Source: Eledone cirrhosa (Eukaryota). Taken from it: a stretch of 64,000 nt of DNA. Of this stretch, positions 10,274-56,574 are shown piece after piece. The stretch spans positions 188,418,001-188,482,000 of the forward strand of contig OZ024743.1 in the NCBI GenBank assembly GCA_964016885.1, in the 5' to 3' direction. The first letter of the stretch is position 1, and the number at the start of each line of letters is the position of its first letter. The translations under genes were made by a program, and so were the position numbers. The notes below the pieces were generated by a model. The model saw only the letters and a list, made by a program, of their open reading frames with translations. It had not been told where the DNA came from and did not search any database.

Positions 10274-10310
<37 letters not shown>

Positions 10311-10312
<2 letters not shown>

Positions 10313-10516
10313 CGTAGGTCCCGGGTTGAGTCGGGGATAACCACAGTAAGTAAGGTACTCAATACATGGCAGAGTAAAATTTTTTAATTTTATAGAAGGA
10401 GCTTCTACAGGACTAGTACTGTTTCATTCAGATGAAATCTTCAGGAAGCTTCCTGAAGATTTCATCTGAATGAAACAGTACTAGTCCTGTAGAAGCTCCT
10501 TCTATAAAATAAAATA

Positions 10517-10520
<4 letters not shown>
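10311..10520. mobile_element. Palindromic hammerhead-bearing PLE-like element in (TA)n; perfect 124-bp palindrome at 10387-10510
   Basis: Zero-spacer palindrome centred on AAG|CTT (10448/10449). Terminal motif ACCAC-N10-GTACTCAATAC..AGAGT at 10340-10375. (TA)n on both sides. Confidence 0.8.
10447..10497 (+). ncRNA. Type I hammerhead ribozyme candidate, mirror copy on minus at 10400-10450
   Basis: Stem I AGCTTC/GAAGCT; core CTGAAGA; short stem II t-TTCA-tc-TGAA-t; GAAA; stem III ACAG/CTGT with loop tactagtc; cleavage triplet GUA. The 10.1-11.1 pair is U-U, which is non-canonical. Confidence 0.7.
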
Positions 10521-14324: not shown

Positions 14325-14632
14325 TTAATTCAAAATATTAACAAAAATAGACATTCGTGTGATCAAGTATATTTTATTATACATATTTCAGAGGTACTGA
14401 GCTATCTTCAACAGTACGTCCTCATCAGATAAAATAAGATGATGCATGACATACCCTGACTTAGTAGATGGTTAAGATTCAGTCATGGTGAACTTTAGTG
14501 AATTTAGTGAATTTTAGTTCATTCTACCATGACTGAATCTTAACCATCTACTAAGTCAGGGTATGTCATGCATCATCTTATTTTATCAGATGAGAACGTA
14601 CTGTTGAAGATAGCTCAGTACCTCTGAAATAT
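14325..14632. mobile_element. Fold-back PLE-like element with 107-bp inverted arms (14383-14489 and 14526-14632) carrying hammerhead motifs
   Basis: Arms differ at two positions and enclose a 36-bp spacer. (TA)n on the left; the right arm is abutted by the tail of the RTE at 14633. Confidence 0.8.
14371..14435 (-). ncRNA. Type I hammerhead ribozyme candidate with a canonical core
   Basis: Stem I ATTTTAT/ATAAAAT; core CTGATGA; stem II GGA(C)GTACTG...CAGTAC(C)TCT; GAAA-T-atgt-A-TA, giving an AUA cleavage triplet overlapping AATAAA. Confidence 0.75.
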
Positions 14633-50777: not shown

Positions 50778-50962
50778 GGAAAAAGTATGACTCCGACGGC
50801 AGAGCTCAAGCCGTTTCGACGGCTATTTCTAGTCCTGAAATAGCCGTCTTGAGCTCTGCCGTCGGGGTCATACTTTTTTCCTATTACCCACTCTACTACC
50901 TTAAGTATTGAGTACTCTGGTGCGTTATGGTCCATCTGGTTCCTTACCACAATTCCTTTGTT
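50778..50962. mobile_element. Hairpin element (about 100-nt near-perfect fold-back) with the shared terminal motif, in (TA)n
   Basis: gaaaaagtatgactccgacggcagagctcaag pairs with cttgagctctgccgtcggggtcatactttttt; inner stem gacggctatttc/gaaatagccgtc; tail TACCCACTCT..GTATTGAGTAC-N11-ATGGTC. Confidence 0.75.
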
Positions 50963-50997
50963 ATATATATATATATATATATACACATATATGTATG

Positions 50998-51205
50998 AAG
51001 TGTGTGGTGCTGAGACTGAGGAGACCACAAATCATGGTAGTACTCAATATATGGAGAGATGCAGAGTGGGTATAGAGATGAGTAAAATACTGTGACAACA
51101 AGCAGCTTCAACTTATGTGTTAAACAAGCCTTTTCAAGCCTTGAAAAGGCCTGTTGAACATACAAGTCAAAGCCACTTAGCATTGTTGTCAGGATTTTAC
51201 CTTCA
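50998..51205. mobile_element. Hairpin element with the terminal motif and back-to-back degenerate UUGAAAA hammerhead-like arms
   Basis: GACCAC-N11-GTACTCAATA..AGAGTGGGTA at 51023-51072. Imperfect palindrome 51081-51200 centred on TTTTCAA-gcc-TTGAAAA. Confidence 0.65.
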
Positions 51206-51231
51206 TATATTTATACATGCACATATATGTA

Positions 51232-51271
<40 letters not shown>

Positions 51272-51275
<4 letters not shown>

Positions 51276-52204
51276 GATAGGGGGGGAAGAAAAAATGGCT
51301 TCACTCGTGCTTTCAACAAATTTATTTTCTTCGCAAAATCCAAAAATAATTTTTTTCCCTATTAGAAAAAATTTTGTTAAAGAAATTTTTTTTTTTTTTT
51401 TTAATAAATTAAGTTGTTGGTTGTTGGTTAGGTCTTAGGAGTTCTTGGTTAACGTAGGAGGTATTGTTTCGTTTTTAGAAAGACCTTTCAGGCTGAGGTG
51501 CGCTTGTCAAACTGATGTGTATGTGGTGTGTTGTTCTATATATAGGGATTTAACATGTCTGTGGTATGGTGGGTTTTTTTTCTCCCCCTTTAATAAGTGT
51601 AGGGGTGTAGGTGTGTTGAAAAAATGTTAATAGCAGTAATGAGTTGAGACAGTGAGTAGGGTTGGGTGGGGAGAAATGTAGCAAGTGCGGCCTGCCCCGG
51701 TCATTCTCGAAAAATTCCTTTATTCAGGGGAAAAAGCTTTTAGTATTCCTTTGTGACGAGAATGGTCATAGGCAAACCGCACCTGCCAAGCTTGTAAACA
51801 ATTATTTTTTTCTGAAAAATTTTTCTACGTCCATCCCAAAATTAGTCCTTTGTTCAACACACACATATGTGCGTATATACGTACATACACACACGGGCAT
51901 ATGTAGGAATATATAGGCACACACCACCAATCACACACCCATGTACATATACATCCACATACATACATAAAAACATATAAAAACACATATACACATATGT
52001 ACACACACGAATATGTACTCATACCTCCACATGGGTATATATATATATACATACATATACATACATATACACACATAAAGATACATAACTAAATATACAT
52101 ATATACACATACACGCACACACACACATACACACACACACATATATATACATATGTCCGTATATATACATCCGTTCACACATACATGCATACACACACAC
52201 ACAT

Positions 52205-52237
<33 letters not shown>

Positions 52238-52250
52238 GAGGCATACACAT

Positions 52251-52308
<58 letters not shown>

Positions 52309-52480
52309 GTACACATAAACACATACAGACACATACACACATATACATACATATACACATATATATATATATATCTATATATATGTACACACATATATAT
52401 ATATATATATATACATACATACACATACACATACAAATACATACACACATACACATATACACCTACATATACATACATAC

Positions 52481-52541
<61 letters not shown>

Positions 52542-52683
52542 CACACACATACATACACATATACATATATATGTGTACACACAAGCACATAAAGACACAT
52601 ATATACATATATGCACATACATACACACACACACACATATATAGATACATACATATACATACACACACATATAAACATATATC

Positions 52684-52715
<32 letters not shown>

Positions 52716-53087
52716 CAAACATACACATACATACATATACATATACATATATATACACACATACACACATATATATATATATATATATTACACACACATA
52801 CAAACATACACACATCCATACATATATATACACACACATACACACACCCACATACATATATACCCCCACGTACATACATCCATACATACCTACACACATA
52901 TATGTGTGTGTCTCACCGTTCACTCCGATATTCATGTGTACACATAAGAAGAGGGGCGGGGTAGTTTAAATGGAATTTTACCTCCGAGTGTTAATTCATT
53001 TTTTCGTGTTCAGTAGTGGATTTTGTGAAGAAAATAAATTTGTTGAAAGCACAAGTGAAGCAATTTTTTTCTTCCCCCCTATCCCAA
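51272..53087. mobile_element. Element bounded by about 70-bp inverted repeats and enclosing a 1-kb compound microsatellite (TIR element or PLE with an inverted 3' end)
   Basis: ttgggataggggggga.gaaaaaatggcttcactcgtgctttcaacaaatttattttcttcgcaaaatcca (51272-51342) and its reverse complement at 53017-53087, TA-flanked. Confidence 0.75.
51857..52910. repeat. About 1-kb compound (CA)/(TA)/(CATA) microsatellite
   Basis: Directly visible; explains all Y/I/H/T/V/C/M-rich ORFs here. Confidence 0.95.
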
Positions 53088-53136
53088 TATACCTAACTGT
53101 ACCAAGGATTACACACATTTTCCAATATATATATAT

Positions 53137-54380
53137 ATCATCATCATCATCATCATCAACGTTTAACGTTCGTGTTCCACGCTTGCATGGGTTTGGACGG
53201 GGATTTTCCCACTTGAGGCAAGAGTGATTGTCTTGCTCGCATTGGACTGTCTGGCAGGTTTTCTACAGTTGGATGCCCTTCCTAACACCAACCACGTTTA
53301 CAGTGTGGGTCTGGGAGGTTTTTACCGTGTTGCCTACACGGCCACATTACAGCGTGGACTGTGTGTTTTTTTTTGTCGTGACACCTACACGATCTCATTT
53401 GTTTCGGCCTGGATGGTGTGGCAACAACATAACTTTACATAGAAGGGGGCGGTGTGGATTGGGTGGGTGGGACGGGGGTGTATTTTGTTAGAGATGCCTA
53501 CTGACTGTAGTAGGTTTTACTTTGTATTTAGGTAAGGCGGGTCTTCTCTATTACTGAGTACCGCCAAAGGTCTCGGTCCAGTGACATTGTCTTGGTGAGG
53601 TGTAAGTGTGTGAGGTCGGAGTTTATCAGCTCGTCCCAAGTTTTTCTGGGTCTGCCTATTCCGTGGCTACCGTCTATCTTTATTGCCCTGCACTTTGTTA
53701 TACAGCTATCGTCCTTCATGCGCATCACGTGACCATACCAACGTAGCCTTCTCTCGAGTAAACAACATCTGATCCCTCTTATTTCTAATTTTTTCCTTAG
53801 TTCGTTTATGCTTTGCCGCTCACGTATATTACTATTACACATCCAGCGGAGCATGCAAGCTTCGTTTCTCTCTAGTCTGCGTATATCCTCTGCACACAAT
53901 GCCCAGGTCTCACTGCCATGCAACATTGCTGTTCGTATGCAGGCATCGTACAACCTGCCTTTCATTTTTAGGGAGAACCCTTTAGCAGCTAATAGTGGTA
54001 TAAGCTCTCTGAACTTTTTCCACTCAGTTCTGACTCTAGCTACTGTACTTTCAGAGCACCCTCCCCCACTACTGATTTTGTCACCCAGGTAACGGAAGCT
54101 GTCCACTATTTCTATAGAACCCTCTGCGCAGTTGAAAGAGCTAGTATTTTGTGGGCACTTGCTGCTACTTATTGCCCCAGAACACCGGCCACATGTAAAA
54201 TCTATGTTCTTAGTTAGCTTACCTGTGATCCCACTACATCTTTTATGCACCCAAACTTTGCATTTGGGACACAAAATGGAATTTCTACCTACGCCTTTCC
54301 TACACTCCGCGCATGGCCACTTCCCGGAGGGGACCGCCGCCTTATTTTCTTTCTTACAAACTAGAACTTTAGTCTTAGCC
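53137..54380 (-). mobile_element. 5'-truncated young RTE (subfamily A, very close to the 14633 copy)
   Basis: Open frame 53528..54380 with an intact PHD-like finger (WPCAECRK), 3' UTR and (GAT)n tail. Confidence 0.94.
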
Positions 54381-54396
54381 ATATATATATATATAT

Positions 54397-54971
54397 AAAA
54401 AGCCAGGATCCCGACGGCTGAGCTCCAACCATTTCGACAGCTAGATCCGAACTAAGCCACCAGTATTAAAATGGCGGGAATCTAGCTGAACTTATCAAGG
54501 AGTACAGTCCATATATGGGCATGCAGTCAAAACAAAAAAAAGAAAAAAAATCTAGGTAAGCAAAAAATCCTAAAAGTTTGTTGTTTTCTTGTCTGTCTCA
54601 GGGAGCTGTTTTTCAGGCCTGTTTAACCCCAGCTGCTATGAAGGTATTTAACTATTTACATTACATCCCAGATCATTGACCACTCCCCGTGACATACAAG
54701 AAAAAGAACAAAATTTTTGGATTTTTTGCTTAGAATTCTTTGCTTTTTCCGTTTTGACTGCATGTCCATATATGGACTGTACCCCTTGATAAGTTCAACT
54801 AGATTCCCACCGTTCTAATACTGGTGGCTTAGTTTGGATCTAGCTGTCGAAACACTTGGAGCTCAGCTGTCGGTGTCCTGACTCTTTTCCTATTACCCAC
54901 TCTACTACCCTACGTATTGAGTACTTTGGTGTGTTATGGTCCACCTGGTATCTTACCACACCCTCTTTGTG
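54397..54971. mobile_element. Large imperfect fold-back element (arms about 54397-54605 and 54683-54889) with UUGAUAA hammerhead-like motifs and the shared terminal motif, in (TA)n
   Basis: Arms are reverse complements with scattered mismatches. Right tail 54890-54970 is homologous to 475-543 and 50881-50962. Confidence 0.78.
54423..54502 (-). ncRNA. Hammerhead ribozyme candidate with a U3-A8 core and long stem II; more degenerate mirror on plus at 54782-54861
   Basis: CTCC-TTGATAA-G-tt-CAGCTAGATTC...GGATCTAGCTG-t-C-GAAA-tgg-TT-GGAG. Stem III is vestigial. Confidence 0.5.
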
Positions 54972-55139
54972 ATATATATATATATATATATATACACAAA
55001 TACACACATACACACACATATATATATTATTATACTTTGGGAGGTTCAGGCTGCCAATAAAAAATACATGCATCTTTTGTTTTTCACTTCAATTTATTCT
55101 GGTTGGTTGGTTTAATTTATTATCAAGGTCTCTTTACCA

Positions 55140-55505
55140 TATGGAATTGCTATTTGTATACACGCATAATACAATCTGCCCTTTATTTTGTGGGGAAATC
55201 TTTTGCACCTAGCAGCATTAGTAGCTCTCTAAACTTTCTCCAACACAACTGCTAATTTGCTTCTCCTGGTAACAGAAGCTGTCAACTGTTTCTAAAGAAC
55301 CCTCTTAGAATTTGATAGAGCATTTGCTGTTTACTGTGCATTGACCACATGTAGAAATTATATTCTTTGCTAGCTTATATAAGATCTTACCATATCCCTT
55401 GTGTACCCATAGTCTGATTTAGGACAAAGGATAACATTTCTATCCATCCTTTCCTAAACCCTGAGCAGGTTCACTTCCCTGGTTTTCTTTCTACTTGTTC
55501 AGACT
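55140..55505 (-). pseudogene. Old decayed RTE fragment (PHD region onward)
   Basis: Degenerate match to WPCS..RKG..RN.ILCPK...WVHK. Confidence 0.6.
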
Positions 55506-55666
55506 TAAGTCATTTCCAAATGAAGCCAAAATAGTTTCTGTATGAGCATGACGTGGTCAATCAGAACAGAACAATTCGTCTAAACCATGTTGCATTGAAA
55601 AATGGACGTTAAATGGTGTTGATTATGATGATTATGATGATGTTGATGATGATAATAATAATATAT

Positions 55667-55977
55667 ATCATCATCATCATTTCATTTTACGTCCACTTTT
55701 CCCTGCTTGCAAGGGTGGGACGGGAACTGATTCTGGCTTGATTTCTACAGCTGGATGCCCTTCCTAACACCAACCTCATTTACAGTGAGTGGTGGGTGCT
55801 TTTTTGCCGTGGCACCTCCACGACCACTTTGCAGTGGAATGATAGGGACCCCAGTCCCTATCATCTCATTTCTACAGCTGAGTAAACTGGAGCAATGTGA
55901 AATAAAGTGCCTTGCTCAAGGAAACAACAATTGAACTCACAACCTTTCGACTGCAAGGCCAATGCTCTAACCACTAA
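55667..55977 (-). mobile_element. Second copy of the 50341 SINE family with a small internal deletion
   Basis: Reverse complement of 50354-50690; its head abuts the 55978 palindromic element. Confidence 0.9.
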
Positions 55978-56566
55978 CCACAAAACGAAGGTTATAGAGA
56001 AAATTGAGGTTGGTAATGGCACATGGAATATATAAGAGACAGAATACTTTTTTGTGAAAAAACATAATTTTATAAGGTAAGGAAATAATAAAGGGTATAA
56101 AAAATGACCGGTTTCGATGGGTCTGCAAAAGCCTTCTTTTCAAATGTTGATTAATATAAAGAAAAATTAATAATACGAAGAGTTAAAATTTGAGATTTGA
56201 AAATTCAAGTATAAAATTCATTGTGGGATTTCATAGCAGTTTTCATCTAGGTAGCAACAACAGGTTGACTGCTGTGTCCCTTTCTGAAAGGGACACAGCA
56301 GTCAACCTGTTGTTGCTACCTAGATGAAAACTGCTATGAAATCCCACAATGAATTTTATACTTGAATTTTCAAATCTCAAATTTTAACTCTTCGTATTAT
56401 TAATTTTTCTTTATATTAATCAACATTTGAAAAGAAGGCTTTTGCAGACCCATCGAAACCGGTCATTTTTTATACCCTTTATTATTTCCTTACCTTATAA
56501 AATTATGTTTTTTCACAAAAAAGTATTCTGTCTCTTATATATTCCATGTGCCATTACCAACCTCAA

Positions 56567-56574
<8 letters not shown>
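55978..56574. mobile_element. 579-bp perfect palindrome (arms 55996-56284 and 56286-56574) with a hammerhead-like motif in each arm
   Basis: 1-nt spacer at 56285; no mismatch found by eye; followed by (CT)n(TA)n. Confidence 0.85.
56421..56470 (+). ncRNA. Minimal PLE-type hammerhead candidate with a U3-A8 core, mirror on minus at 56100-56149
   Basis: aacat-TTGAAAA-Gaaggcttttgcagacccat-C-GAAAC-CG-GTC-atttt. The palindromic ACCGGT stem III and GUC triplet are typical of PLE minimal hammerheads; stems I and II are imperfect. Confidence 0.55.

Follow-up and report, generated by a model that had tools for sequence, protein, structure and literature searches.

A 64,000-nucleotide stretch of the Eledone cirrhosa genome (NCBI GenBank assembly GCA_964016885.1, contig OZ024743.1, positions 188,418,001 to 188,482,000 of the forward strand; hereafter the window, whose coordinates are used throughout) contains three loci, here called elements 1 to 3, with hammerhead ribozyme motifs whose core carries a U3-A8 pair in place of C3-G8. 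We consider it probable that these loci are inverted, 5'-truncated 3' ends from two lineages of Penelope-like elements (PLEs), in which a type I hammerhead founded with U3-A8 likely cuts the element RNA in the cell, cutting being likely optional for transposition. The families of the three loci were identified, each was founded with U3-A8, and they fall into two lineages. Young sisters of element 2 have insertions that begin at the predicted cut site, and the same wider family passed through a productive phase with a mismatched C3·A8 core before returning to U3-A8.

In all three loci, as in related loci elsewhere in the genome, one arm is an inverted, 5'-truncated partner of the other, and only one end carries a tail. 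Element 1 (51000..51204, left boundary approximate) is the 5'-truncated 3' end of a member of an old PLE family, in two arms: a long-tail minus arm and a short-end plus arm joined at 51138-51140. Its plus-strand core UUGAAAA (51141..51147) belongs to a decayed hammerhead with G12A at 51169, A15.1G at 51172 and the 5' strand of stem I lost; the mirror core UUGAAAA on the minus strand (51137-51131) belongs to one with C11.1U, A15.1G and a partly deleted helix III. Judged from its sequence, the hammerhead of this copy is dead, because G12A and A15.1G affect the plus arm, A15.1G affects the minus arm and stem I is reduced to ≤3 nt. Element 2 (54397..54972) is a two-armed insertion with (TA)n flanks from the oldest sampled subfamily of a Hydra-type PLE, with a short-end minus arm and a plus arm bearing a tail of ~85 nt. 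Its plus strand holds a full type I hammerhead frame (54786..54871) with core UUGAUAA at 54786-54792, a stem II domain of about 55-56 nt, GAAAC at 54849, a self-complementary helix III loop GAGCUC and C17 at 54871, and the minus strand holds the mirror hammerhead (54413..54498; core TTGATAA at 54498-54492, C17 at 54413). Element 3 (55979..56574) comes from a young, autonomous PLE of Neptune type, whose 3' end it represents as a perfect 289-nt inverted pair (55996-56284 / 56286-56574) with the tail start on the left arm. Its minimal plus-strand hammerhead (56427..56464) has core UUGAAAA at 56427-56433, GAAAC, a palindromic CCGG helix III and C17 at 56464, and the mirror on the minus strand (56106..56143; core TTGAAAA at 56143-56137) is identical in sequence; a private T>A change in stem II at 56436 is present in both arms.

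A sequence-only reading of the window had placed U3-A8 heptamers at 51141, at 54498-54492 (minus) and 54786, at 56427 and at their mirrors; these coordinates are exact, and G10.1, stem II and GAAA or its decayed form follow at each site. A Watson-Crick 3-8 pair within a Y3-U4-G5-A6-N7-R8-A9 core occurs in all six arms. G12-A13-A14, A15.1-U16.1, H17 and G10.1-C11.1 are present in elements 2 and 3 and in their families, and fail in the window copy of element 1 (G12A, A15.1G). As that reading had anticipated, standard searches miss these motifs: with Rfam models, nothing in the window was recognised as a hammerhead at E≤5.

The motifs are not chance matches, because genome matches far exceed reversed-pattern controls. 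Genome-wide, the patterns for the element 2 subfamily, the element 1 family and the wider element 2 family returned 179, 94 and 3,926 matches against 0 for their reversed controls, and a generic minimal-hammerhead pattern returned 6,588 against 26. Several of the core-state and junction counts given here were made by hand from the first rows of longer match lists. In the element 3 family, 27/30 loci picked by open reading frame (ORF) held the full motif, and TTGAAAA was found in 34/34 motif matches from these loci and in all 31 rows of this family among the first 100 minimal-pattern matches. The first 100 of the 179 exact matches of the element 2 subfamily comprised 92 U3-A8, 4 U3·G8 and 4 other cores, and the 94 matches of the element 1 family (≤1 mismatch) comprised 74 U3-A8, 7 A3, 5 G3, 4 C3·A8 and 4 other cores, with no C3-G8 in either set. 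U3-A8 is the fixed founder state of each of the three families and not a product of AT-biased decay, in agreement with the sequence-only reading. Across the first 100 of the 6,588 minimal-pattern matches, where tandem arrays inflate the counts, 56 cores were C3-G8, 42 were U3-A8 and 2 were mismatched; searches limited to CUGANGA overlook a large share of this genome's hammerheads.

Coding parents were traced for the families of elements 3 and 2. For the element 3 family, traced via locus L061, the motif lies on the sense strand ~1.2-1.3 kb downstream of a 777-aa frame with reverse transcriptase (RT) and GIY-YIG domains (Pfam RVT_1, E 4.6e-7). All 108 protein matches scored were 96-100% identical and many have an open 777-aa frame; the family is young. 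Since its GLKF at 48, DKG at 155 and Cx4CxxC linker CGRTNCGTC at 644 match the clade description, the family is assigned to the Neptune type on the motif descriptions in the available part of PMC8557442 only. Its young copies (L064-L093) also carry a mixed (TG/TA) microsatellite of ~0.6 kb in the 3' untranslated region, so that the microsatellite has spread on jumping. The parent of the wider element 2 family is a 710-aa PLE frame with YRDD and YIG motifs and tblastn likeness to other PLEs, for which a Pfam search returned no match; element 2's own subfamily is tied to this ORF through locus L277. With RWR at 27, DKT at 109, CNCPDRSIC at 564, CNLC at 662, CKH at 690 and no GxKF, this family appears Hydra-type by the same description, and a Nematis-like assignment was rejected on that basis. 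ORFs upstream of old element 2 copies in L266 and L276 were rejected as parents, being separate C3-G8 PLEs. The hammerhead lies on the sense strand of the 3' pseudo-long terminal repeat (pseudo-LTR).

Comparison of the tails reduces the number of origins in the window. The tails of elements 1 and 2 align with a score of 50, reached in 0/2,000 shuffles, whereas 1,547 and 1,475 of 2,000 shuffles score as high as the element 3 tail does against elements 1 and 2. By this comparison, elements 1 and 2 are homologous sister Hydra-type families and element 3 is separate, and the homologous tails imply two lineages and two origins in the window rather than the three unrelated elements of the sequence-only reading. 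A tree of 15 PLE proteins, all from this genome (bootstrap not fully settled, one long branch), splits Neptune-type and Hydra-type groups by a 100/100 branch and places C3-G8 families within each, the C3-G8 relatives being L063 and, on the other side, L266 and, less surely, L173. A single clade of U3-A8/C3·A8 carriers is rejected (approximately unbiased test, p-AU 2.7e-5). With C3-G8 relatives on both sides, this argues that U3-A8 arose independently at least twice. U3-A8 is also carried by L283, the sister of element 3, by a tandem repeat of 316 bp (L124) and by a single motif in L046. The sister (L283, L005, L246 and others) is an abundant Neptune-type family with a U3-A8 core, a 4-bp stem II and a GUA cleavage triplet.

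Helix III of the wider element 2 family is matched 50,621 times in the genome but the core only 3,926 times, which means that most copies are truncated within stem II; a fourth two-armed insertion in the window (50778..50965) is such a copy, lacking the heptamer and having a tail of an older U3-A8 subfamily type. The first 100 of the 3,926 cores comprised 63 U3-A8, 33 C3·A8, 4 U3·G8 and 0 C3-G8. Mismatched cores as frequent as U3-A8, one outcome that the sequence-only reading had named as refuting it, were partly found here. The C3·A8 sister subfamilies lack a Watson-Crick 3-8 pair, the rest of their core is intact, and C3 occurs with G7 in 30 of the 33 C3 rows; N7 takes all four bases across the family, and U4, G5, A6, A8 and A9 are kept. 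The C3 allele is also present in the contig sets of sequencing runs X1 and X5 (~18% and ~22% of depth at L245:3709), X1 being possibly the source of the assembly.

A ribozyme-independent tree of 826 ORF columns, built from 15 of 31 candidate rows (>70% cover) and rooted by a single long outgroup row, resolved this family as a ladder from the window-type oldest U3-A8 through TTGAAAA and TTGACAA to seven CTGAGAA rows at successive nodes, and from these to TTGAGAA and TTGATAA. Monophyly of the C3·A8 rows was rejected (p-AU 1.8e-4), which makes them paraphyletic, and an earlier, unrooted tree of 64/95 rows showed the same nesting. Ratios of non-synonymous to synonymous rates between groups of the ORF tree were 0.15-0.40. 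Between the earliest and the latest C3·A8 row, 15 synonymous and 5 non-synonymous changes became fixed, compared with 18 and 49 among private changes (p=1.7e-4), which implies that a selected protein of their own copied the mismatched founders. One lineage went from U3-A8 to C3·A8 and back to U3-A8 with its protein under purifying selection throughout, and the productive C3·A8 phase means that the 3-8 pair is not essential for spread. The return to U3 may reflect selection or merely a common C-to-T change. Because C3·A8 is an inherited subfamily state that continued to amplify, selection on the pair is a soft preference at most.

Insertions starting at the predicted cut site were counted in the young sister subfamilies of element 2, as distinct from the window's own three subfamilies, in two overlapping samples (the first 50 of 1,018 and the first 50 of 299 loci). 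Among the first 50 of 1,018 short two-armed loci, cut-site junctions made up 16/26 with young U3-A8 tails, 4/19 with C3-type tails and 0/4 with older U3-A8 tails, one further locus being mixed. The ratio of cut-site to loop-III junctions was 16:7 for young U3-A8 tails against 4:11 for C3-type tails (p=0.019). A stricter cut-site junction pattern identified 299 loci genome-wide. Of the first 50, 43 begin at G1.1 in both arms, 14 of them with a blunt junction and 29 with an untemplated spacer; the other 7 keep upstream bases, with GTC on one arm. By tail, the 43 footprints divide into 33 young (two intermediate tails assigned by inference), 7 C3-type and 3 older U3-A8, the C3-type fraction falling below the 38% family share (p=0.0025). 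Their flanks mark them as complete tiny insertions in (TA)n, each with one short and one tailed arm. The untemplated spacer in 29/43 means that microhomology does not explain the cut-site junctions. A reverse transcriptase that runs off the end of its template adds untemplated bases. Such additions point to cleaved RNA templates as the likely source of the footprints, and the cut-site insertions likely record cutting in the cell.

Folding predictions differ between the window copies and a young sister. The plus and minus hammerhead folds of element 2 are predicted to lie 12.7 and 11.2 kcal/mol above the minimum-energy fold. As monomers, the window copies are predicted to be 11-16 kcal/mol away from the hammerhead fold, and a young U3-A8 sister within 0.8 kcal/mol. 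The element 3 monomer is likewise unfavourable, and its region is predicted to be able to self-pair as a dimer; the window copies are probably dead or dimer-dependent. In 27 CTGAGAA copies the hammerhead fold carries a median penalty of 3.9 kcal/mol, compared with medians of 0.8-2.0 for the U3-A8 groups, and CUGAG, containing C3 and G7, is able to base-pair with the CUCAG in helix III. Elements 1 and 2 have different sequences in helix III and in its palindromic loop, yet complementarity is kept. The loop III hexamer is GGCGCC in the element 1 family and GAGCTC in the element 2 family, both self-complementary, which suggests a dimer contact despite a full helix III.

Taken as a mechanism, the favoured explanation would run as follows. 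The core pair would have been swapped through a U3·G8 wobble step, with AT-biased mutation favouring the change and selection for pairing maintaining it. Dimers in tandem pseudo-LTR transcripts may be the working form of element 3's minimal motif and, in elements 1 and 2, of the self-complementary loop III. Cleavage would release the element RNA from an upstream read-through transcript. Most insertions would be copied from uncut RNA, because the cut lies upstream of both fixed 3' ends, and the smallest would be copies of the 3' cleavage product, made by an enzyme that continues to the 5' terminus of this RNA and runs off. The three window copies are probably relics, with element 1 dead, element 2 predicted to misfold and element 3 dependent on a partner. 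A further step, that along the U3-A8 to C3·A8 to U3-A8 lineage the share of insertions from cleaved 3' RNA fell and rose with the pair, which would make this genome a natural, dated mutagenesis experiment on the active site of a ribozyme, is one we advance only tentatively and with somewhat more doubt than belief.

Several observations weigh against the favoured explanation. C3 is found in 1,507 of the 3,926 cores genome-wide (~38%); among the first 100 such cores, 99 have the C3·A8 mismatch. C3-type tails still yield 7/43 footprints, and the main C3 tail is also carried by 3/22 reverted copies. Older U3-A8 tails show 0/4 cut-site junctions in the first sample and account for 3/43 footprints in the second, though they make up 8/23 tails in an unbiased sample. 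The footprints come mostly from young U3-A8 subfamilies, and since older U3-A8 tails are also footprint-poor, age and core state are confounded. Core positions changed less than flanks in 20 old copies after removal of CpG and polymorphic sites (1/80 vs 71/1,009), a difference that was not significant (p=0.056); a first such test (2/100 vs 216/1,500) was discarded because CpG and subfamily sites had exaggerated its contrast. The protein link of element 1 is weak, consisting of short remnants in inverted orientation. For the Anolis Poseidon element PAc, no RNA reads end at the cut site in the available part of PMC11167929.

An alternative is that the motif is mainly a folded signal, for protein binding, dimer contact or as part of a promoter, with the 3-8 pair drifting near-neutrally under AT bias and the junctions produced by RT stalling at the base of helix III or by a transcription start there. 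The C3·A8 lineage made ~1,500 core-bearing copies with its ORF under purifying selection, most copies lack half of the ribozyme (50,621 helix-III vs 3,926 core matches), C3-G8 was hardly reached from C3·A8 (1 in the first 100 C3 rows), GTC is kept on one arm in 7 of the first 50 short junctions, and older U3-A8 subfamilies have few footprints, all of which such a signal would accommodate. It fits poorly with an identical helix III in subfamilies of very different footprint rates, with junctions at G1.1 in 43/50 rather than 1-2 nt further at the helix base, with the persistence of all other catalytic positions in both Hydra-type and Neptune-type families and with the regained Watson-Crick pair, and we regard it as unlikely. 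Somewhat less likely again is that C3·A8 (chiefly CUGAGAA) functions as a core variant in its own right, whether by protonation of the C·A pair, by a register shift with G7 or by trans cleavage from a dimer partner. C3 and G7 do occur on the same branch (30/33 C3 rows), the remaining core is intact, and one of the tails behind the 7/43 C3-type footprints was seen only with C3 (4/4). Yet the CUGAG-CUCAG pairing and its fold penalty, the deficit of C3-type footprints against the family share and the inactivity of single C3G or G8C mutants of a PLE hammerhead (reported in the available part of PMC11167929) all speak against it. Very improbable is the strong form of the sequence-only reading, three unrelated elements converging on U3-A8 with catalysis strictly required, which the shared founder state, the at least two origins and the mere 2 mismatches in the first 100 minimal-motif matches would suit, but which is at odds with the homology of elements 1 and 2 and is contradicted by a mismatched lineage autonomous through several successive subfamilies, unless C3·A8 RNA cleaves near the wild-type rate. 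That reading correctly set decay aside, but it erred in seeing three unrelated contexts and overstated a strict selection for catalysis.

The U3-A8 variant itself is already published, also in PLE hammerheads, the sequence-only reading having noted it as a known variant, and what is new are its members in two PLE lineages of this genome; comparisons below refer to the available parts of the cited papers. Natural U3-A8 hammerheads were described as C3-G8 to U3-A8 covariation, with the in vitro activity of such swaps cited (Perreault et al. 2011, PMC3088659), the variant not being linked there to PLE subfamily history. U3-A8 also occurs in the Cercyon PLE hammerheads of Schistosoma mansoni (~1,300 matches; Cervera and de la Peña 2014, PMC4209133), whose in vitro cleavage is low and dimer-dependent. 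Cercyon shares with the present families the core covariation in a PLE pseudo-LTR hammerhead, a palindromic helix III, proposed dimer activity and motifs that are mostly single or in opposite-strand pairs from truncated copies. The present case differs in involving two PLE lineages in another host, a full 5-bp helix III in elements 1 and 2 and a stem II domain of ~55 nt in element 2, and in a mismatch subfamily, a reversion and cut-site insertions, which the available part of PMC4209133 does not describe. Our literature search found no report of these three features, on which subscription papers and the supplements of PMC4209133 may bear.

Hydra-clade PLEs, including Hydra-1_Obim (Craig et al. 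2021, PMC8557442), resemble the element 2 family in RWR, DKT, CxCx5C, CxxC and CxH motifs, a (TA)n target, a sense-strand hammerhead and bulged bases after G10.1. In contrast, 25/25 Hydra-clade families in File S2 of that paper have CUGANGA and short stems II, whereas element 2's wider family has U3-A8 or C3·A8. Neptune-type PLEs with a C-terminal endonuclease (EN+) share GxKF, DKG and the Cx4CxxC linker before GIY-YIG with the element 3 family, as well as the inverted 5'-truncated partner arm and one-sided tail (PMC8557442); the U3-A8 core of element 3's family and of its sister L283 sets these apart, and a GC-rich relative in this genome retains C3-G8. The hammerhead of PAc cuts in vitro, but PAc RNAs with a mutated hammerhead remain competent for in vitro insertion, for which uncut RNA serves as the principal template (PMC11167929). 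Its two fixed reverse-transcription start sites would account for short and tailed arms as seen here, but PAc has a C3-G8 core and no RNA ends were found at its cut site, whereas genomic junctions here pile up at the cut. Animal non-LTR retrozymes likewise carry type I hammerheads linked to PLEs (PMC7229834; bioRxiv 10.64898/2026.07.22.740005), and retrozyme-like tandem arrays with either core exist in this genome (L124, L125). The window elements differ from them as ends of coding PLE families rather than tandem non-coding units: no tandem unit was found at the three loci, and coding parents were found instead.

Earlier work bearing on whether PLE hammerheads cut in vivo found low in vitro activity (PMC4209133) and dispensable cleavage without cut RNA ends (PMC11167929), as far as the available parts of these papers go. 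This genome offers matched natural alleles (U3-A8, C3·A8 and reverted U3-A8) on one protein lineage together with hundreds of cut-site insertions, and its interest rests on these sister subfamilies, which make in vivo activity testable. If the share of insertions from cleaved RNA did fall and rise with the pair, the genome would record hammerhead activity in vivo and give direct evidence that PLE cleavage is real, optional and yet selected.

Further hammerheads and repeats were observed in the window and elsewhere in the genome. Two-armed copies of an abundant C3-G8 hammerhead family occur at 10300-10520 (core at 10453, plus) and at 436 (minus); their tail resembles that of element 2 (1/2,000 shuffles), and the family is likely a C3-G8 relative of elements 1 and 2. 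A 107-nt inverted pair at 14383-14632 has a C3-G8 heptamer on the minus strand (14428-14422) with a long stem II and GAAA, its mirror arm carrying U4A. In the genome, L124 (C1:6519946-6521556) and L126 hold tandemly repeated, retrozyme-like units of 316 bp, all of which have a U3-A8 core, and tandem arrays of 469 bp (L125) and 310 bp (L011/L061) have C3-G8 hammerheads, the 310-bp unit with U·U at 10.1-11.1. Contigs of run X5 over window positions 56290-56565, within element 3, show several clustered T>C differences and one A>G, seen in this contig set only, which may be alleles or adenosine-to-inosine editing of the inverted-repeat RNA. Element 2 adjoins the 5' end of a long interspersed element (LINE)-type RT fragment with a (CAT)n tail at 53135-54380, and further copies of this fragment, which we take to be RTE-like, lie near 3.4-5.3, 12-16.6, 26.4-27.7 and 44.3-46.2 kb of the window.

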